Shown here: positions 2,392-13,252 of the stretch, piece by piece
How the letters are laid out: every line of letters starts with the position of its first letter
Position numbering within the stretch: the first letter of the stretch is position 1
Sequence record: SRR20825010_2819
Direction: 5' to 3' (one strand)
Length of the DNA: 43,907 bases
Translations under genes and position numbers: made by a program
Notes under the pieces: model-generated
Database searches by the model: none
Told to the model about the DNA's origin: nothing
What the model saw: only the letters and a program-made list of their open reading frames with translations

Positions 2392-2676
2392 GTCTGAATT
2401 CTCCTTCGTGTTTCAGTGAATTCAGACTACCCCTTTCAAAAACGAACAGATATTCCACAAATGTGATAGCTGTATTTGCATGAATGAACAGAACCTTCAG
2501 TGGAGAATCAACAGACTGGGGTTTCCCCAATGAGACATCTATCAAGTTAATGCCGCGGATGATTAACTATCCTTAATCAATTAACATCATACCGTGCACG
2601 ACGCACGTGATGTGTGTGAAGAACGCCTGATCCGCGTTCAGTATCGTTGTCCAGTCACTTAAACAGGGAACGTTGT

Positions 2677-5600
2677 ATGCGACATTCTCCAAAGGCGCTG
2701 AAAGCGTTCTTTCTGGTGTGTTTTTGCTTTTTTTCGACCGTTTCTCACGCTGCGCTGGTTGATATCGACCAGGACGATGGTGTGATTTATTTCACTTTCG
2801 CTGCCCCGAATAAAGTCGTCCGCTACGACATGGTGTCGCAATCCATGTTGTCGGATATTCCCCTCAATAACGTACCAACAGCCGCAGAAATTCAGGGTAA
2901 CAATCTGTATGTGGCCTATCGGCGCAGTGCCTACGCAATAGATCTCGATTCGCAGACACCGACTTTCATTGCCAACACCGGCGAAGACATGACGGCACTC
3001 CATGCGGTAGGAAACGCCCTTTATCTGGTACAGGGTTTCAACCGGGTCATGGCTCGGAACCTGTCAGATTACACACTCATAGAAGAAAAAACGGTTTTCT
3101 ACAGGGGGACCGGATCTGTGGGATCACCAGCACAGTCAGCGCTGTACTATCGGTCAGACGGCACTTCACCGTCCGATATTGTTAAAATCCCACTCAATGC
3201 GGATGGCACAATGGGGAGCGATATGGACAGCCCCGCCCACGGAGATTATCCCAGTGCCAGTCAACTTTACCTGTTCCCGGATGAAAGTCGCGTACTCGAC
3301 AATCAGGGCATCCTTTATTTCGCCAACGACCTGACCTACGCCGGCAGCCTTGCTGGCGCGTTTGACGATATGACTTTCTGGCAGGGCGACCTGCTGGTGC
3401 TCCGTGGCAATACCGTTCATCAATACAACAACGCCATGCTGGAAGTGGCTCAGATGGGCCTCAACCAGCAACCTCTGAAAATTGCCAGCTACGGTGACGC
3501 TGTCTTTGCTTTCTACGAGAACAGCAGTCAGATCGGTGTTGAAGTATTGGACCTCGACAGTCTTGCCACGCCATCACCAGGCGAGCCCCCCAATCCGGAA
3601 ACTTCGGATTTCATCCCGGATTTCATCGAGTTCGACAGCCAGGAAGGCCTGTTGTATCTGGCCGACCGGGAGACACTGGCCATTCACATCTGGTCGGCGG
3701 AAACGCAAACCTATGTTGACAGCATCGGCCTGCTGAACCCACCCACGTGGATGACGTATTCCCCAGCCCATGGGCGACTTTACCTGGGCTACACTGGTGG
3801 AAAGATCAGCCAGATAGTCATGTCCACCGGGACACTTCAGGAAACTCCGTTCACCAACCTGCCACAAAGTGTTCTGGGTCTGGAATCCGCAGGCGATTAT
3901 CTCTTTGCGGTGGATGCCTCCGGTGCCTGGGAGCGGTTCTACAGCTTTGACGCATCCGGAACAATGGTGGACTCCGTTGAATGGCGGCACGCCAGCTCAG
4001 AATACCTATGGAATCCTGTCACCGAGCGTATCTATCACTTCCGGTCCGGAACATCGCCCAATGACATTGAATGGTCCGAGCTGAGCTCAACCACCGGGCT
4101 TTTGGGCAGCAAGGGCGACTCCCCCTATCACAGCAGCGGCTACGCAGCCGCACCTTTGCACTTCGACCCTGCAGGCCAATTGCTGCTGACCGGCGGAGGC
4201 AAGCTCCACGACGCCTATTCCCTCGCCGAACTCAACTATCTGTCCAATGAAATAACAGACGCCGCCTGGACGGGAGGTACCCTCCACACCATTGCAGCAG
4301 TTGATGGCAATGCCGTGCTGCAAACCTGGTCCGACAACTACGAGCTCCTTGAAGAGAACTCTATATTCGATGCCCTGGACACCCGTATTCTGGCCTATGG
4401 CGCCCACCTGGTGGCGATTGAAATGGCCGCAAGCGGGGGGCCTGACATCTCAGTACTCGATTTCACAGCGGACACTGACGACGACGGGCTGTTTGACCTC
4501 GAAGATAACTGCCCCAACACCGCCAATGCCAATCAAGACAATCATGATGGCGATGAGTTTGGCGACGCCTGTGACAATGATTCCGACAACGACGGCATCC
4601 CCGACACAGACGAACTCGCAGTGGGACTGGATCCCTTTGACAGTGCCGATGCCCAGGAAGACCTGGACGCAGACGGTTACAGCAATCTGAGCGAGTACCT
4701 CAACGGTACATCCATGATCGATGAAGAGGATTATCCTGCGGACACACCCTATCGCGAAGGATTTGAACTGGGTGTCGTACCCGACGATTTCAACGTTTCT
4801 GTTTCCAGCAACGCCGATTGGAGCGTTGACTCCCAGCAGGCCTCCGAAGGTCAGTTCAGCCTGCGTTCAGGCGCTATTGATGACAATCAGGAAAGCAGTA
4901 TCGAATGGGTCTTTGAAACGCCCTTGCCTGCGGGAACCCTGGAACTGGACTACCGCGAGTCAACAGAGCGCTGCTGCGATTACCTGCGGATATACACCAA
5001 TGGCAGCCAACAATTCTTTAGCCGAAGCCATTCCGGCTCTACCCCGGAGTGGCGTAGGGTGAGCATTTCGGTGCCTGCCGGTACCACCGTAATTCGATTC
5101 TCTTACGACAAGGACAGCTCCGTCTCCTCCTACGACGATGCCATCTGGATTGATAACCTGGCATTTACTGCAGGTGCTCATCCGGAGCCGGATCCAGACG
5201 ATCCCAACCGCGATTCCGATGGAGACGGCCTGCCAGACTCGCTGGAAGACCAGTATCTGGCGCTCGACCCATACAATCCCGATGATGCGTCCCAGGACTA
5301 TGACGGTGACGGCGCCACGAACGCCTCAGAAGTCGCCTCCGGTTACAATCCCGACGTTTCTGACGACTTTCCCACCCACAATACGATGGACTTTTTCCCC
5401 TTGGGGGACATCACCTGGGTTTTCTCCGACCCATCGGATGGCTACCAGTTCCGAAGCGAATCCATAAGCGGCGCAGGTATGTTCAAGTTCATTTTCCCAA
5501 ATGGCGATGACCGCCTGGTACGTCGTACTACTGGCGTCTATCTGCTTGAAAGCCGGTTTGTTGATTCGGAAGGAGATCGGATTCGAATCACCTACGGGGA

Positions 5601-6051
5601 TGGTCTGCTAATGATCCCCAGCTCGCTTGAGCTGGGCACGAATGTCACTTCACGTGCCACCCTCTCCAGCTACATCAATGGCCGGCAGGGCAATCAGGTC
5701 AATTTCACCACGACCATTGAATTGATTGAGGAGTCCACAACCAGCGTAGACGGCGAGCCGCGTGCCGTGTTGGTCACACTCAGACAAACCCGTATCACCA
5801 TGGATGGACAGCTTCTGGACAATACTTTTGAAATTGAGGCCTTTGCGGAGGGTGTGGGGCGGATCTACAGCTCCCTTGATCCGGACGCCGAGCTGTCGGC
5901 CTACAACGTCCAGCAAGTGGACAACTCCATTTCCTCCGGCTCGGCCTCTGACGACTCATCGTCAGGCGGTGGCGGCGGTAGCATGTCCTGGCCGTTATTG
6001 GCCCTGCTGTTTATGATGGGATGGGGTCGGCGCCGGTTCAGCACCAACTAG
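2677..6051 (+). CDS. Large secreted surface protein: duplicated beta-propeller-like N-region, TSP3-like DxDxDG Ca-binding repeats, beta-sandwich domain, C-terminal GlyGly-CTERM
   Basis: Signal peptide MRHSPKALKAFFLVCFCFFSTVSHA (ATG 2677; the ORF track starts at 2647). DTDDDG...DNCP...NQDNHDGDEFGDACDNDSDNDG repeats. Ends SSGGGGGSMSWPLLALLFMMGWGRRR. Confidence 0.85.
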   Translation: MRHSPKALKAFFLVCFCFFSTVSHAALVDIDQDDGVIYFTFAAPNKVVRYDMVSQSMLSDIPLNNVPTAAEIQGNNLYVAYRRSAYAIDLDSQTPTFIANTGEDMTALHAVGNALYLVQGFNRVMARNLSDYTLIEEKTVFYRGTGSVGSPAQSALYYRSDGTSPSDIVKIPLNADGTMGSDMDSPAHGDYPSASQLYLFPDESRVLDNQGILYFANDLTYAGSLAGAFDDMTFWQGDLLVLRGNTVHQYNNAMLEVAQMGLNQQPLKIASYGDAVFAFYENSSQIGVEVLDLDSLATPSPGEPPNPETSDFIPDFIEFDSQEGLLYLADRETLAIHIWSAETQTYVDSIGLLNPPTWMTYSPAHGRLYLGYTGGKISQIVMSTGTLQETPFTNLPQSVLGLESAGDYLFAVDASGAWERFYSFDASGTMVDSVEWRHASSEYLWNPVTERIYHFRSGTSPNDIEWSELSSTTGLLGSKGDSPYHSSGYAAAPLHFDPAGQLLLTGGGKLHDAYSLAELNYLSNEITDAAWTGGTLHTIAAVDGNAVLQTWSDNYELLEENSIFDALDTRILAYGAHLVAIEMAASGGPDISVLDFTADTDDDGLFDLEDNCPNTANANQDNHDGDEFGDACDNDSDNDGIPDTDELAVGLDPFDSADAQEDLDADGYSNLSEYLNGTSMIDEEDYPADTPYREGFELGVVPDDFNVSVSSNADWSVDSQQASEGQFSLRSGAIDDNQESSIEWVFETPLPAGTLELDYRESTERCCDYLRIYTNGSQQFFSRSHSGSTPEWRRVSISVPAGTTVIRFSYDKDSSVSSYDDAIWIDNLAFTAGAHPEPDPDDPNRDSDGDGLPDSLEDQYLALDPYNPDDASQDYDGDGATNASEVASGYNPDVSDDFPTHNTMDFFPLGDITWVFSDPSDGYQFRSESISGAGMFKFIFPNGDDRLVRRTTGVYLLESRFVDSEGDRIRITYGDGLLMIPSSLELGTNVTSRATLSSYINGRQGNQVNFTTTIELIEESTTSVDGEPRAVLVTLRQTRITMDGQLLDNTFEIEAFAEGVGRIYSSLDPDAELSAYNVQQVDNSISSGSASDDSSSGGGGGSMSWPLLALLFMMGWGRRRFSTN

Positions 6052-8054: not shown

Positions 8055-8780
8055 TTAATTACGCCTCCACTGCTGTTCAAGCAACGCACGCTCCTGGTTC
8101 GGCCCAACGGGGGGCGTGGCCATCATCCGGTCCAGTTCCTCGTCAAGCACACTGCCACCGCTCGCTGTCTGGTATACATCAGGTGCCAGGGAAGGCTCTG
8201 CTTCGGCAGTGGCCACCTGTTCCCAGGAACCCTCGCCAGTGCGACAGGCAATTTGCTCCGACGCGGACGTTTGCGTCTCCAGGCGGAACTGACGGCACCA
8301 TTGGCCGGCCTGGCTCTGGAACGTCAGTCTCGGCGTCAGGCTTGTCTGGTCATTAACCTGGTAAACCTCGCCACTGAGCTGGCTATCCAGAACGTTCGCT
8401 ACCGCGGGCGACATCGGATCGCCGTCCGTTGCTACCGTCAGCCATTGTGTCAGCGCCACCCCCGCGATGATAGCGGCGGCGATCGCTTTACCCGTGTGGC
8501 CGGGCAGCCTGCGCCACCACGGAAAAGTGACCACATTGTCCTGCGCGGGCGCAGCACTCCGGGAGGCCTTTTCCTCCAGCATTCGGGTAATTGATGCCGG
8601 CATGGGACGGTCATCGATCGAGCCGTAATGCGCCTGTAGTTCGGCATCCACGGACGCCATCTCGGCCAGTCGATCTGCCAGCGTTGGATCCTTCTCAATC
8701 TGGTCCCGAACCGCTTCCATTTCCGCGTCGGTCAGTTCGTTATCGAGGAAAGCCGACAGGGTTTCATCAGTCATCTTCAT
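8055..8780 (-). CDS. Transmembrane anti-sigma factor
   Basis: N-terminal DETLSAFLDNEL anti-sigma domain, one TM helix, and a periplasmic domain with a Cys pair (WCRQF...IACR); 4-nt ATGA overlap with the upstream ECF sigma. Confidence 0.85.
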   Translation of the reverse strand: MKMTDETLSAFLDNELTDAEMEAVRDQIEKDPTLADRLAEMASVDAELQAHYGSIDDRPMPASITRMLEEKASRSAAPAQDNVVTFPWWRRLPGHTGKAIAAAIIAGVALTQWLTVATDGDPMSPAVANVLDSQLSGEVYQVNDQTSLTPRLTFQSQAGQWCRQFRLETQTSASEQIACRTGEGSWEQVATAEAEPSLAPDVYQTASGGSVLDEELDRMMATPPVGPNQERALLEQQWRRN

Positions 8781-9268
8781 GAATCGGTCCTCATGGTTAC
8801 AGGCGCCAGGGCCTCGCTTAATGCCACCCTGGCTCGGGCCAGCCGGCTCATCACCGTACCCTTGGGCACTTCCAGAATCTCAGCCACGATTTTGTAGGGC
8901 ATGCCCTGGATTGCCACCAGGGAGATAATCTGGCGTTGGTCCTGTGGCAATCTTGCCATCGCAGCGTCCACTCGGTGCCATTCGATCTCTTTGGTGGTCT
9001 GGTGCTCGCCATTGATCACCTGGCCATCCGTCAACTCCGGATGTTCCGCGGCGTCCCGCCGAACCTTACGCGCGCGACACTCGTCTATCCAGACGTTACG
9101 GCAAACCCGGAATGCCCACTTGGTAAGGTCGGCGTCGTCCGGCATGTCCCGGGTCAACAAACGCTCCACCGTATTCTGTAGCAGGTCGTCGGCGTCTGAC
9201 AGGGAGCCGGTCAACGAGTAGGCGAATCGTCGGAGCCTTGGTAATAGTTCGGTGATTTCCTCTTTCAT
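8777..9268 (-). CDS. ECF RNA polymerase sigma factor
   Basis: Region 2 (LPRLRRFAYSL...DADDLLQ...W.FRVCRN.WID) and region 4 (LP..QR...GMPYK.VAEILEVPKGTVMSRLARAR). Confidence 0.95.
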   Translation of the reverse strand: MKEEITELLPRLRRFAYSLTGSLSDADDLLQNTVERLLTRDMPDDADLTKWAFRVCRNVWIDECRARKVRRDAAEHPELTDGQVINGEHQTTKEIEWHRVDAAMARLPQDQRQIISLVAIQGMPYKIVAEILEVPKGTVMSRLARARVALSEALAPVTMRTDS

Positions 9269-9299
9269 AGCCTTCCATTTCCAAAGGTGTTATCGGTAA

Positions 9300-9324
9300 A
9301 ACGGTCGTGAAACCGATTTATTCC
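9300..9324 (-). promoter_or_regulatory. ECF promoter for sigma/anti-sigma (autoregulatory)
   Basis: GGAATAAA-N13-CGTT on the minus strand, 31 nt upstream of the sigma ATG. Confidence 0.75.
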
Positions 9325-9333
9325 ATGAACGAA

Positions 9334-9358
9334 GGAATTTTTTTTCCGCCGGGCCGTT
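9334..9358 (+). promoter_or_regulatory. ECF promoter for the S8 protease
   Basis: GGAATTTT-N13-CGTT, back-to-back with the sigma promoter and with identical spacing. Confidence 0.7.
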
Positions 9359-9395
9359 GTATCGTATGACACACATCTTTAATCGGACGGGCACG

Positions 9396-10730
9396 ATGAA
9401 ACCTTTTCTCTTGAGACACTTGTTCCCTGCAATCGCTCTTTGCACGCTTTCCGCACCGGCCTTGTCCATCGGTGTCGGTGACGTAACCAGCGGCCAGATA
9501 GATCCGATAACCCGCCAGGTTGAACAGAAGACACAGCGCATGGTGGAGCAGGCCATGGACCGTCGCCTTGAGAAGCAGATCAACACACAGGCCACAGAGC
9601 TCATGGAACAGCTCGAAGCGTTACCGTCAGTCCTTCCCATTCTCACGCGTCAGGGACAGAAAGCGTTCAATGATATCCAACTGGACGACGGTTTCCGTGC
9701 CGTGGAAGGTCAGTGGCTGGTGACCGGTACCGCTGCGGAACTCGCCCGCCTTGACCAGCCGGGGATCACAGTTCTCGAACGCCGAGAGCTGACCGGCCTG
9801 GGTATGACCGTGGTGCGGTTCCGGGTCACTGCCGAGCTGGATTCCCATAATGCCCTACAGGACGCCCTACCAGAACTCGCGGATCGGCTGGACCGCAACC
9901 ATATCTATGCTCCGCAAACGGGTGCGAAAGAGCCCCTGTCAGAGACCAAAGTGCCACAGTGGCGTAGCCTCTGCACCGCCCCGGTTCGCGTTGGAATGGT
10001 GGATACGTCCATTGCCACAGACCATCGGGTATTTGAAAATGCACAGGTTGTGCAGGAGCGTTTTCTGGCATTGGCGGAAGTGGACGGAACACTGACTGAG
10101 CCGGCAATTCACGGCACGGCCGTCGCCAGCCTGCTGGTGGGAAACCGGCCTGGGCAATGGCCTGCCCGGCTGCCGCAGGCTACGATCTTCAATGCCTCGG
10201 TGTTCTATGACCGGGATCGCACCCTCTCAGGCGCCACACTTGGTCATTTACTGGAAGGCCTGAACTGGCTGGCCGGTCAGGATTTGTCGGTTATCAACAT
10301 CAGCCTGACCGGCCCGGACAACCAGCTTCTCGCCGCGGCGGTGAGCCGCCTCAGGGAGCGCGGCGTGCTGATGGTTGCGGCGGTAGGCAATCAAGGGCCC
10401 TCTGCCCCGCCACTATATCCGGCCGCCTACACGGAAGTGATCGGTGTGACGGCGGCTGATAGTTCCGGGAAGCTCTACCGCTGGGCCAATCGGGGTGAAC
10501 AGGTGATGTTTGCCAGCAACGGCGTCACCGTTCCGGTAGCACACCCTGATGCCGGCATGGTTGCAGACAGCGGCACCTCGCTGGCGTCGCCAGTGGTTGC
10601 CGCTGCATTGGCCTGCCAACGTAATGAACTTTCGGAAGACAAGGCCATTGGTGCCCTGATCAATGCAGCGAAGGATCTTGGCCGTCCTGGCCGGGACACC
10701 GAATTCGGTCACGGCTTTCTGGATTTCTGA
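9396..10730 (+). CDS. Secreted S8 (subtilisin-like) serine peptidase
   Basis: Signal peptide from ATG 9396 (MKPFLLRHLFPAIALCTLSAPALS). Triad motifs VGMVDTSI, HGTAVASLL and SGTSLASPVVA, oxyanion AVGN, and C-terminal DLGRPGRDTEFGHG. Confidence 0.92.
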   Translation: MKPFLLRHLFPAIALCTLSAPALSIGVGDVTSGQIDPITRQVEQKTQRMVEQAMDRRLEKQINTQATELMEQLEALPSVLPILTRQGQKAFNDIQLDDGFRAVEGQWLVTGTAAELARLDQPGITVLERRELTGLGMTVVRFRVTAELDSHNALQDALPELADRLDRNHIYAPQTGAKEPLSETKVPQWRSLCTAPVRVGMVDTSIATDHRVFENAQVVQERFLALAEVDGTLTEPAIHGTAVASLLVGNRPGQWPARLPQATIFNASVFYDRDRTLSGATLGHLLEGLNWLAGQDLSVINISLTGPDNQLLAAAVSRLRERGVLMVAAVGNQGPSAPPLYPAAYTEVIGVTAADSSGKLYRWANRGEQVMFASNGVTVPVAHPDAGMVADSGTSLASPVVAAALACQRNELSEDKAIGALINAAKDLGRPGRDTEFGHGFLDF

Positions 10731-10740
10731 CTGTCGGGTT

Positions 10741-11709
10741 TCAGAAATCCGCCCTGAGCGTCACCCCCGCCACCGTCTTGTCGTAATCCGCAGAATCCAC
10801 GTTCGAGGTGTACTGGCCCCAGGAAACACTGGGCTCAACACTAAACACCTCGTTGAGTCCAATCCGCCAGCTGGCCTCCAGAATACGGGCTTTGTCCGCC
10901 CGCTCATTGCTTGAGCGTTCGGTAAGGTCACCGGTCAGAGGGTCCGTCAGAACCGGGCTGGTACTGGTGACGGTCACCTCTTCATACTCCCTGTCCTCGT
11001 AACGCCAGCCAAACCGCAGGCGGTTTTCCTCGCCGGCCAGGATAAACCGATGCACCAACGCTACCCGAACGCGAAGCAGGTCATTGTCGTAGGCTTTCGC
11101 CTCCGCATCTTCGCGATCACCGTCAAGGCCGAGTAGAAAGTGGCTCTGGGCCTGGTTGAAAAAGAAGAACGCATCCAGACTGGCGCCTTTTATCTCGGCA
11201 TCCCGCGCATCACTGTCATCAAATTCCTTGCGCTTGTCCTGCAGGCTGCCACGCAGATAAACGTCCTCCGCGAGCAGGCTGCCCAGATAGACACTGGCAC
11301 GCCGGAAATCGAGGAACGGGTCTGACCCCAGGGTTGCGTGGGAATAGTAGTAACTGGTGCCAACGGTGACCGGGTCGAAGTCATAACTGACATCGGCCGA
11401 CAGCAGGTGAATGTCCTGATCGAATTCATCAAGGTTCTGGTACCGTCTGCCCGAGAGCGAATAGCCGAGCGTCACGTTTAACCGCTCGGTGGGTTTCAGG
11501 ATGCCTTCCAGACCGGCGTCGAAAACCCAGGCCTGATCGCTCTCATCGGCGGACGTGTTCAGTTCATCCACGGTCACGTTGCTGTCGTGCTCGTAACCGC
11601 CTTCAAGATATCCGTTCGCTGACGCTTTCTCCTGCGCCTGAACCATTAATACCGGTGACGCCAGGCCAATGGCCAGGGGCAAGGTCAAAATACGTTGAAT
11701 CAACTGCAT
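10741..11709 (-). CDS. Outer-membrane beta-barrel protein (Slam/DUF560-barrel-like, no TPR region)
   Basis: Signal peptide (ATG 11709, AAGGAG RBS), GYEHDSNV first strand, alternating amphipathic strands and a terminal beta-signal VAGVTLRADF. The family assignment is tentative. Confidence 0.75.
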   Translation of the reverse strand: MQLIQRILTLPLAIGLASPVLMVQAQEKASANGYLEGGYEHDSNVTVDELNTSADESDQAWVFDAGLEGILKPTERLNVTLGYSLSGRRYQNLDEFDQDIHLLSADVSYDFDPVTVGTSYYYSHATLGSDPFLDFRRASVYLGSLLAEDVYLRGSLQDKRKEFDDSDARDAEIKGASLDAFFFFNQAQSHFLLGLDGDREDAEAKAYDNDLLRVRVALVHRFILAGEENRLRFGWRYEDREYEEVTVTSTSPVLTDPLTGDLTERSSNERADKARILEASWRIGLNEVFSVEPSVSWGQYTSNVDSADYDKTVAGVTLRADF

Positions 11710-11734
11710 GTCTGCTCCTTTCACTTGGGCGTCC

Positions 11735-11762
11735 AAAAGAAAGCCGGGCCCTATGGCCCGGC
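11735..11762 (-). terminator. Intrinsic terminator between the small secreted protein gene and the barrel gene
   Basis: Minus strand GCCGGGCC-ATAG-GGCCCGGC followed by TTTCTTTT. Confidence 0.8.
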
Positions 11763-11778
11763 GAGTCTGGAGGAGTGG

Positions 11779-12291
11779 TTATAGCAGGCCACCACTGCCG
11801 GACCCTTTCACGGTCCCCTTGACGGAGTTCTGCACTTCACTCCGGACGCTCTCAGATACAGACGTTCCGATCTGCTGATTGGTTTCAGCGCGAATTTCAG
11901 CATTTCGGGTCTCGTTCATGCGCTCTTGCGCCTGTTCGCGCTTCTCACCAGCTTCATCGCGAGCCGTGTCCGCTGTAGCATCGGCGGTTGCTCGCACCTT
12001 CTGGCCGGTTTCAACGCCAGCGCTGACCGCCTGATCGGCCCTTCCGCGGGCTTCTTCACTGGCCGCCTGGCGTTGGTCGGCAGCTTCGTCTCGAGCGGCT
12101 TCGCCGTTGACACTGCCCTCTGCGCTTGCAGAGGCACCACCATTCGCGGAAACACCGTTGCGGGTGCTAGCTTCCGCACTCATGTTGGTTTCAGCCTGCG
12201 CGTTTGCATTGGCCGCGCCAGACCCTCCTGCGGCGAAAACGCCGGTGGAAAGAATGGAACAGATTGCGAGTGTCAGTACATGCTTTTTCAT
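11779..12291 (-). CDS. Secreted low-complexity Ala/Gly/Ser/Glu-rich protein of unknown function
   Basis: Signal peptide MKKHVLTLAICSILSTGVFA, strong AGGAGG RBS, and no aromatic residues in the mature part. Confidence 0.85.
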   Translation of the reverse strand: MKKHVLTLAICSILSTGVFAAGGSGAANANAQAETNMSAEASTRNGVSANGGASASAEGSVNGEAARDEAADQRQAASEEARGRADQAVSAGVETGQKVRATADATADTARDEAGEKREQAQERMNETRNAEIRAETNQQIGTSVSESVRSEVQNSVKGTVKGSGSGGLL

Positions 12292-12338
12292 GGTTACGTC
12301 CTCCTGATTTACCCGTTTCGGGTGGCTTTCATCAGGGA

Positions 12339-12363
12339 GACGGCTGAGCCTGGCGTTTATTCC
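12339..12363 (-). promoter_or_regulatory. ECF promoter for the small secreted protein and barrel genes
   Basis: GGAATAAA-N13-CGTC; the -35 octamer is identical to that of the sigma promoter. Confidence 0.75.
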
Positions 12364-12379
12364 AAAAAAATTTCACCGC

Positions 12380-13252
12380 CTAGGTTTTTGGCACGTAGGG
12401 TCGAACATCCCAGCAGAAATAGCGTTTCAATGCACTGTTTGCCTCGTGGTCTTTCTGGCGCCAGCCATAGACCTTGGGTTTGCTGGTTTCAATGGCGAGG
12501 GTGCCAAACACCAGCCAATCGTAAATCGCCAGCGTGGAGGTCACATTCTTGGCTGAATTGGGCCCGCGGGCGTGATGATGGTGGTGCTGAGTGGGAAAGA
12601 CCAGAATATGCGCCAGTGCCCACATGGTCTTGCGAACCCAGGCCCAGCGGTGGTTGTGGAAATACAGGTCATAATTCCAGTTCACATGAGTATGGGCCGC
12701 CCATAGTCCCTTGAAGGCGGTGGCAATCAGGAACACCTCTACCAGCCCCAGATAAAGACACAGCAACTGGAAGGTGTAGTTGGGCATGATCAGCCACCAG
12801 GCCCAGCCATTGACGAAGGTCTGCGTTACCGTCAATTGGCCCTTGTTGTCCTGGCCGCCCGACATGTGGTGCGGGCGGTGGCTCATCTTGTAAAACGCCT
12901 GAACCCATTGCAGAACACGGTTATTGGGTCGGCGCCGGTGGGCAAACAGGTGGAAACTGCCGTGGATAAACTCTTCCACGCAGAAAAACACGATCAACGT
13001 GGGCCAGAAATACGCCTGTTCGAGCCAGGCCAGTGAACCGGCGCTGCCAGGAATCAGCGTTGACAGACCCAGCGTCAGCAACAGCAACACCAACGGCCTT
13101 TGCACCGCCACCATCATGAACGTGGCAAGAAATGCCATGCGCCAGTCCTGCGTGTTCTTGCGACCTTCACGGGTACGGCCGCTGACTACCTCCCAAAGGG
13201 CGGTAACCACAATAAAAGCCGTAACCAGCATCGTCAGTTTCTGATCGTCCAT
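12380..13252 (-). CDS. Fatty acid hydroxylase / sterol desaturase family membrane di-iron enzyme
   Basis: TM helices with His boxes HGSFHLFAH, HRPHH, HTH and HHHHH; C-terminal IYDWLVFGT. Confidence 0.85.
   Translation of the reverse strand: MDDQKLTMLVTAFIVVTALWEVVSGRTREGRKNTQDWRMAFLATFMMVAVQRPLVLLLLTLGLSTLIPGSAGSLAWLEQAYFWPTLIVFFCVEEFIHGSFHLFAHRRRPNNRVLQWVQAFYKMSHRPHHMSGGQDNKGQLTVTQTFVNGWAWWLIMPNYTFQLLCLYLGLVEVFLIATAFKGLWAAHTHVNWNYDLYFHNHRWAWVRKTMWALAHILVFPTQHHHHHARGPNSAKNVTSTLAIYDWLVFGTLAIETSKPKVYGWRQKDHEANSALKRYFCWDVRPYVPKT

Follow-up and report, generated by a model that had tools for sequence, protein, structure and literature searches.

Group ECF26 of the extracytoplasmic function (ECF) σ factors contains four subgroups (s4, s10, s14 and s27) in which a subtilase gene lies at position -1, and its published entry lists the promoter GGAATAAA/GTT (PMC7826278 supplement). 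In S. meliloti, overexpression of RpoE6 (ECF26s14) induced the divergent serine protease SMa0142 as well as two nearby genes, SMa0146 and SMa0148, and did not reveal a function (PMC6180224). A separate literature concerns the DUF560 outer-membrane barrels of the type XI secretion system (T11SS). Cluster 1 DUF560 barrels are demonstrated protein exporters (PMC8406197, PMC12282271) and the predicted T11SS cargo architectures all include an 8-stranded barrel domain (PMC12282271). For the clusters other than cluster 1, which make up 9 of the 10 DUF560/T11SS sequence clusters, a 2021 survey reports no characterised protein (PMC8406197), and a 2025 cargo search reports few barrel-type cargo outside of cluster 1, with one other cluster (cluster 3) examined (PMC12282271). 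The current study concerns a 43,907-nt stretch of marine bacterial DNA from record SRR20825010_2819 (hereafter the window; all positions are those of the whole stretch), which encodes at 8055-12363 a five-gene module consisting of an ECF26-type σ factor, its anti-σ factor, a secreted subtilase of family S8, a low-complexity secreted small protein, and a DUF560-type barrel. The subtilase and the small protein both carry a strict four-residue repeat, and it is possible, albeit at somewhat less than even chance, that the barrel exports or anchors chains bearing this repeat, the protease among them.

The five ORFs are organized into three transcription units, each with a GGAAT-N16-CGT promoter (ORF calls and motif search in the window), as the original prediction had proposed from the sequence. 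The pattern GGAATWWW-N13-CGTY has three matches in the window versus 0.04 in shuffles. Since this pattern was derived from the three window sites themselves, its independent support is the recurrence of all three sites in 11/11 same-genus orthologous loci. A protease orthologue (E < 1e-100) is held by 11 of 37 same-genus genomes, and all 11 encode the five genes in the same order. The module is real and conserved. Five relative genomes contain 5-11 motif matches each versus 0-2 for a control pattern, suggesting that a few sites exist outside the locus. Consequently, a wholly local regulon, as the earlier term self-contained implies, is likely rather than certain.

The regulatory core closely follows the published precedent. 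The σ factor is 39% identical to S. meliloti RpoE6 (E 3e-33), and this identity to an ECF26s14 member, rather than a group HMM or tree, serves as the proxy for its ECF26 placement. The anti-σ factor is 26% identical to EcfR6 (E 2e-9) and the protease is 37% identical to SMa0142. As in the ECF26 subtilase subgroups, the anti-σ gene is found at +1 of the σ gene and encodes one transmembrane helix, the subtilase is divergent at position -1, and the autoregulatory GGAATAAA/GTT promoter listed for ECF26 is present at the σ gene. The zinc finger expected of an ECF26 anti-σ domain is missing from the anti-σ factor, as its zf-HC2 match falls below the cut-off and its first 90 residues contain 0 Cys and one His; the aligned N-terminal part of EcfR6 is likewise without Cys. 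Two Cys residues (162 and 179) are located in the periplasmic domain. Judged by these similarities, the combination of σ factor, anti-σ factor, divergent subtilase, and low-complexity protein is the published ECF26-subtilase arrangement. Our search of the openly accessible literature, to which the 2009 paper that first classified the ECF factors does not belong, returned no published account of the five-gene form or of four-residue tracts in these proteins. Thus, the earlier statement that no characterised system has this composition applies to the barrel-containing form, but not to the core, whose RpoE6 representative has been tested in S. meliloti. What appears to be new is the barrel-containing branch together with its link to the four-residue repeat; the regulatory core is already known.

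This strict V/I-x-x-x repeat (hereafter the tetrad tract) is found at the C-terminus of the small protein (I-GTS-V-SES-V-RSE-V-QNS-V-KGT-V) and at the N-terminus of the protease, ahead of its prodomain (I-TRQ-V-EQK-T-QRM-V-EQA-M-DRR-L-EKQ-I). The window protease exhibits a period-4 power of 8.8, which was reached in 0/500 shuffles (p < 0.002), while the small protein yields p 0.024 versus shuffles; in the same test, 1 of the 21 other window proteins has p 0.02 or lower. Small proteins of the Cellvibrionaceae and relatives carry 14-30 tetrad units ending no more than 4 residues from the C-terminus. In nine proteases from loci that lack the small protein (L183, L185-L191 and L112), the tract runs to 30-51 consecutive tetrads, its Fourier peak is at 4.00-4.01 and its net charge is -49 to -88; these are perfect (V-E-x-x)n tracts of 120-205 residues. 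Such long tracts are present on 8/10 proteases from loci without a small protein, and L113 has a short one (p 0.01). Once 109 loci had been dereplicated to 59 lineages, the period-4 signal was evident in the S8 extension of 22/32 barrel-positive versus 3/27 barrel-negative lineages. A hand-picked set of 30 small proteins gave 8/9 versus 2/21. The tract is also found on the S8 protease of L091, an alphaproteobacterial locus type with this barrel, and it is absent from both proteins of G1034, a 100% complete genome in which the barrel was not found genome-wide. Furthermore, at three loci with a barrel homologue but no S8 or σ gene nearby (L165, L166 and L167), the barrel is in each case preceded by a low-complexity ORF that contains a period-4 tract (p 0.002, 0.000 and 0.006, respectively). 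Canonical coiled coils have a limit of ~3.9 residues per turn, with 4.0 lying outside (Hartmann et al., PMC4786415), and therefore the long tracts, with a period of 4.00, are not ordinary coiled coils. The window tract was modelled as a helix (AlphaFold2), and an Atlas look-up with one long tetrad tract yielded no match.

Visual inspection and a hydropathy script indicate signal peptides on all three nonregulatory proteins, in agreement with the original prediction. The remaining S8 layout consists of the tetrad tract (~residues 36-70), a prodomain-like region, and a catalytic domain whose intact triad had also been noted; D203, H239, S395 and the oxyanion residue N332 (numbered from Met) are invariant in 50/50 aligned orthologues. 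Pfam gives PF00082 only and no C-terminal export domain. The mature small protein contains no F, W, Y, or H, which agrees with its earlier description as aromatic-free. Its residues 21-62 form an alternating small-residue segment (period 2.0), followed by a predicted long helix at 58-164 (AlphaFold2) that includes the V/I-x-x-x tract (141-161), and the protein ends in GGLL. V157 is its only invariant column among 50 orthologues. Relatives of the small protein were traced by synteny, as a word-based homologue search gave 1 relative. A complex prediction for the barrel, S8 protease, and small protein (single sequences, no alignments) gave the protease a score of 0.02, which we do not take as evidence on binding in either direction. 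We likewise make no claim that the S8 extension mimics the small protein in composition, since the matched-pair z of -3.7 (30 lineages, GC-stratified) is close to the controls (-3.3 for anti-σ versus small protein and -3.0 for catalytic domain versus small protein).

The original comparison of the barrel with the Slam/DUF560 type is upheld by a Pfam SlipAM match above the cut-off. The barrel gene lies behind an attenuator-like hairpin after the small gene. Its model contains 14 long strands (pLDDT 86.5, AlphaFold2) and starts at residue 29, directly after the signal peptide, with no TPR and no plug domain. The C-terminal Phe, likewise part of the earlier description, is invariant in 50/50 aligned orthologues. 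At E 1e-30 or better, the barrel subfamily comprises 465 clusters, and among the 150 best representatives all but one (149) measure no more than 355 aa, i.e. barrel-only length. TPR-bearing relatives do exist: at L166:3865-6457 and L167:3872-6401, the gene ahead of such a barrel encodes an acidic secreted protein whose tail has a period of 4; in L166, this acidic ORF contains an in-frame stop and the barrel a frameshift. According to Table S1 of Grossman et al. 2021, network cluster 4 (105 sequences) includes DUF560 proteins from Wenzhouxiangella marina, Cellvibrio sp. 79, Pseudohongiella, and Halieaceae, and the cluster-4 rows examined list no TPR superfamily (PMC8406197). Because Wenzhouxiangella marina and Cellvibrio sp. 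79 also gave barrel matches in our searches, the barrel probably belongs to T11SS/DUF560 network cluster 4, an assignment made by organism rather than by alignment to cluster entries. No Slam structure occurred among the matches of either fold search with the barrel, which is still compatible with a relationship.

When examining the distribution of the module, it is evident that the barrel is confined to a subset of ECF26-subtilase loci. A GTDB pattern scan returned 71 S8 loci, mostly from Marinobacter; 67 of these have an ECF26-like σ factor, with the barrel present in 55 and absent from 12. Two even draws, which are less biased, covered 351 genomes of the order and 401 of the phylum. The order-wide draw matched 26/351 genomes at 27 places; 24 were examined and 21 were of the ECF26 type, with a barrel within ~6 kb in 20/21. 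The phylum-wide draw matched 55/401 genomes, from which 58 loci were fetched. Of these, 25 are of the ECF26 type (4 with the barrel and 21 without), and the other 33 have a different arrangement or no such σ factor. A barrel profile gave 5 strong matches in the same draw (E < 1e-50), all adjoining an S8 gene; 7 weak matches (frames of 442-667 aa) were left out of the fetched loci. A low-complexity secreted neighbour was counted by eye in 16/21 barrel-less ECF26 loci. Based upon the barrel counts of the two draws, the core of the module is σ factor, anti-σ factor, and subtilase, and the barrel marks one, mainly gammaproteobacterial, branch. The co-regulation and co-occurrence of the original prediction are supported, with all five genes present in the 11/11 same-genus loci.

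The small protein is more variable still. Among the 20 barrel-positive ECF26 loci of the order-wide draw, it is found upstream of the barrel in 4, 6 have a DUF5666 lipoprotein, 9 have neither, and 1 is not visible. Altogether, 10 loci keep barrel and protease without the small protein (L113 of the phylum-wide draw, L182, L183 and L185-L191) and 7 encode the DUF5666 lipoprotein instead (the 6 above and L112 of the phylum-wide draw). This lipoprotein variant, observed at L184, L195-L199, L112, and L135, usually has its own ECF26-type promoter and is located upstream of the barrel. A distant subgroup is represented by eight metagenome loci. In 7/8 (where the contig reaches), the barrel comes after the anti-σ gene or the σ-anti-σ pair; 4 have a convergent S8 gene, and no small gene is in view, most contigs being short. 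Conversely, L065, L069 and L086 encode the small protein although no barrel was found there, and a search with positive controls found the barrel absent genome-wide from 3 small-protein genomes, one 100% complete and two without a completeness figure. As each protein occurs without the other, a strict model in which the small protein is the obligate cargo of the barrel fails across the family. A second copy of the small-protein gene is found ~3-4 kb beyond the anti-σ gene, away from the barrel, at L038:879-1385 and L039:113-619. At L037:5959-8336, in a complete genome, frameshifts interrupt both the protease and the barrel gene, which could reflect sequencing error or decay. Several gammaproteobacterial loci also encode a lipoprotein-like gene of ~130-180 aa after the anti-σ gene (L107:8326-8847, L108:3739-4221, L177 and L179-L182); it is possibly a sixth module member and gave no Pfam family in the two cases scanned.

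Based upon these features, a working model can be proposed, which is the most likely of those considered here. An ECF26 σ factor of the subtilase subgroups would be held by its membrane anti-σ factor until an envelope signal releases it, presumably via anti-σ proteolysis. The freed σ factor would then fire the three local promoters, yielding more σ factor, a Sec-exported subtilase, and a Sec-exported low-complexity protein, whereas read-through of the terminator would yield a lesser amount of the TPR-less DUF560 barrel. In this branch, the barrel would serve as an outer-membrane pore or anchor for chains with a strict V/I/L-x-x-x tract. Since the tract is found on both the protease and the small protein, the protease would probably be a client itself, via its N-terminal tract, and the small protein an abundant, dispensable second client (a co-exported filler, surface coat, or bait) rather than the sole cargo. 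The comparative data thus suggest that the protease is at least as likely to be cargo as maturase. Subtilases cut off their N-terminal pro-region during maturation, and a tract located there would suit a disposable export signal or an enzyme-releasing tether. A more far-reaching and more doubtful proposal is that the TPR-less DUF560 barrels of cluster 4 constitute a distinct T11SS subtype, the clients of which are marked by the four-residue repeat instead of an 8-stranded barrel, that it exports or surface-tethers a subtilase and fillers under ECF26 control, and that the 120-200-residue tracts of period 4.00 represent an undescribed fibre or tether.

Several observations weigh against an export or anchoring role for the barrel. 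Its nearest solved folds are the monomeric 14-stranded solute porins CymA (Z 22.5, rmsd 3.7, 275 aligned) and OmpG (Z 20.8, rmsd 3.1, 234 aligned), although these share 8-11% identity with it and the common barrel size is uninformative on substrate. Neither candidate client has an 8-stranded barrel domain. On the S8 tree, 4 changes suffice to account for the barrel label, so its association with the tract represents about three independent contrasts, largely confounded with class. Furthermore, 10/32 barrel-positive S8 extensions miss p 0.02 (one through a parsing failure), and a weak tract (p 0.025-0.06) persists at two barrel-less Halopseudomonas loci (L065 and L069). At L182, barrel and S8 are accompanied by neither a small protein nor an S8 extension, and the 12.9 kb of L174 encode σ factor, anti-σ factor, and barrel but neither an S8 nor a small gene. 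Of the 10 loci without the small protein, 7 have no ECF-like site close to the start of the barrel, and a well-placed site is seen only at L182. Lastly, the low-complexity partner of some barrel-less alphaproteobacterial loci is fused to OmpA (E 1e-19) or to a PRC-like domain (below cut-off), suggesting that it resides in the periplasm in those lineages. The principal competing explanation, which we consider rather unlikely, is that of a periplasmic stress module. The small protein would be a LEA-like, largely disordered protectant retained in the periplasm, while the subtilase would function in quality control or exit via type II secretion, and the barrel would be an OmpG/CymA-like solute or peptide porin riding along in one branch. 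Such a module would be consistent with the fusions, the top fold matches, L182 and L174 (both of which keep the barrel with no tetrad partner in view), and the absence of this barrel family from 21/25 ECF26-type loci of the phylum-wide draw, of which 16 retain a low-complexity neighbour. It would also be consistent with the automatic name “late embryogenesis abundant protein” of the small protein's first match in the ESM Atlas, which is possibly its own cluster. However, it leaves unexplained the period-4 ORFs ahead of barrel homologues in unrelated contexts, the long protease tracts (120-200 residues) where the small protein is absent, and a second, unrelated barrel that occupies the same slot in five alphaproteobacterial loci (L101:3778-4488, L103:3084-3833, L110:2258-3250, L118:3137-4036 and L121:7537-8310). 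In these ECF26-subtilase loci, the PF13557-like barrel adjoins low-complexity secreted proteins, three of which have RG/ADD-rich repeats. All five barrels match one another, 2/5 pass the PF13557 cut-off, none matches the window barrel (BLAST), and that of L118 has its own ECF promoter. The presence of two unrelated barrels in one slot suggests that the low-complexity proteins of these loci often need an outer-membrane partner.

The same substitution bears on a Fap-like interpretation, in which the small protein would be a fibre or amyloid subunit that crosses the outer membrane through the barrel as a dedicated translocon and is matured by the protease. PF13557 presumably covers the COG4313 channels. 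As FapF resembles COG4313 channels (PMC6173800), the second barrel is the single point where the Fap analogy gains. The Pseudomonas Fap system (FapB/C/E, FapD and FapF) likewise combines a secreted low-complexity subunit, a peptidase, and an outer-membrane barrel in one locus; one promoter and a conserved attenuator for small gene and barrel would suit an abundant subunit and a scarce pore, and residues 21-62 of the small protein alternate strongly. However, FapF forms trimers of a plugged, 12-stranded barrel that also has a coiled-coil domain, the peptidase FapD belongs to family C39, and FapC contains three 37-residue Q/N repeats (PMC6173800), whereas the window barrel has 14 strands and no plug, the window peptidase is of family S8, and none of these hallmarks is found in the window proteins. 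The small protein is predicted to be mostly helical (AlphaFold2), exhibits no curli consensus and no CxxC, has 1 Q/N-x10-Q/N pair versus 2.3 in shuffles, and has no internal repeat (self-BLAST). In addition, barrel and protease persist in the 10 loci without a small gene. The Fap analogy of the original prediction thus fails in barrel type, peptidase class, and repeat motifs, and we regard a Fap-like role as improbable. A comparably low probability is assigned to the subtilase as a feedback regulator, which is compatible with the other explanations: it could cut the periplasmic domain of the anti-σ factor (positive feedback) or destroy the inducing signal, possibly the low-complexity protein (negative feedback). 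The subtilase is indeed the most constant neighbour, given the 67/71 S8 loci with an ECF26-like σ factor, and subtilases flank ECF33 σ factors as well (PMC7826278 supplement). However, Lang et al. term the activation mechanism of the S. meliloti ECF26 σ factors hypothetical (PMC6180224), and the σ-anti-σ-barrel operon of L174 exists without a nearby S8 gene. The S8 subfamily is also found co-directional with a different ECF σ factor, fitting the published ECF33 context (subtilase at +2), at L127, L129, L132, L136-L140, L142-L145, L147-L151, and L153-L161.

Features of the module in the window, with positions on the whole stretch
Feature	Position	Strand	Description
Anti-σ factor	8055-8780	-	241 aa; RseA_N/zf-HC2-like N-terminus, weak Pfam; one transmembrane helix 99-117; periplasmic domain
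ECF σ factor, ECF26-type	8777-9268	-	163 aa; Pfam sigma-70 regions 2 and 4; overlaps anti-σ start
ECF26-type promoter of σ/anti-σ	9300-9324	-	GGAATAAA-N13-CGTT; kept in 11/11 loci
ECF26-type promoter of S8 protease	9334-9358	+	back to back with σ promoter; kept in 11/11 loci
Secreted subtilase S8	9396-10730	+	444 aa, ATG at 9396; PF00082 E 2.6e-25
Outer-membrane β-barrel	10741-11709	-	322 aa; DUF560/SlipAM, PF04575 34.3 bits versus cut-off 22
Intrinsic-terminator-like hairpin, small gene/barrel gap	11743-11762	-	probable attenuator
Low-complexity secreted small protein	11779-12291	-	170 aa; no Pfam family
ECF26-type promoter of small gene and barrel	12339-12363	-	kept in 11/11 loci

The hairpin between small gene and barrel, together with its T-run, is present in 42/51 orthologous intergenic regions (crude test). 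It is a probable attenuator that would leave the small protein in excess, with the barrel probably made at a fraction of the small-protein level. RNA contigs from two studies cover the region; being contigs only, they permit no gene ranking or reading of induction. A gene at 12380-13252 (-) encodes a 290-aa membrane protein with His-box motifs, which is desaturase/hydroxylase-like by eye, has no Pfam match, and adjoins the module only in the closest relatives. It ends 17 bases before the small-gene promoter and no terminator was called between them, such that its transcription may continue into the small gene and the barrel. Elsewhere in the window, positions 2647-6051 (+) encode a secreted protein of 1134 aa that combines repeats resembling thrombospondin type 3 with a GlyGly-CTERM sorting tail.

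If the barrel is a plain porin, the finding reduces to an ordinary uncharacterised ECF26 regulon. For one uncharacterised T11SS cluster, the module supplies candidate clients, the tetrad tract as a candidate signal, and the σ factor as an inducible switch, such that what noncanonical T11SS barrels carry becomes testable by a few deletions. It likewise suggests an output for ECF26-subtilase regulons, the single tested member of which is without an assigned role. The runs of 30-51 exact tetrads are also a structural oddity in their own right.

The module corresponds in part to the T11SS and to the S. meliloti RpoE6-EcfR6 locus. The T11SS (Slam/NilB/HrpB) resembles it in having a PF04575 barrel above the cut-off with 14 strands, the gene of which adjoins those of secreted proteins. 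It differs in its N-terminal periplasmic TPR domain and in its TbpB-like cargo with an 8-stranded barrel, for which the window offers a small protein predicted to be helical or disordered and an S8 protease with PF00082 only. Unlike in the T11SS, the barrel described here is tied to an ECF σ factor and a subtilase. The S. meliloti RpoE6-EcfR6 locus is without a barrel. It does encode a low-complexity ORF with a signal peptide and its own promoter adjoining ecfR6, which from its position would be SMa0146, although this ORF consists of Ser/Asn (SSSN) repeats with no hydrophobic position, unlike the tetrad tract. The two loci share a σ factor, an anti-σ factor with one transmembrane helix at +1, a divergent subtilase at -1, and an autoregulatory promoter of the same type.

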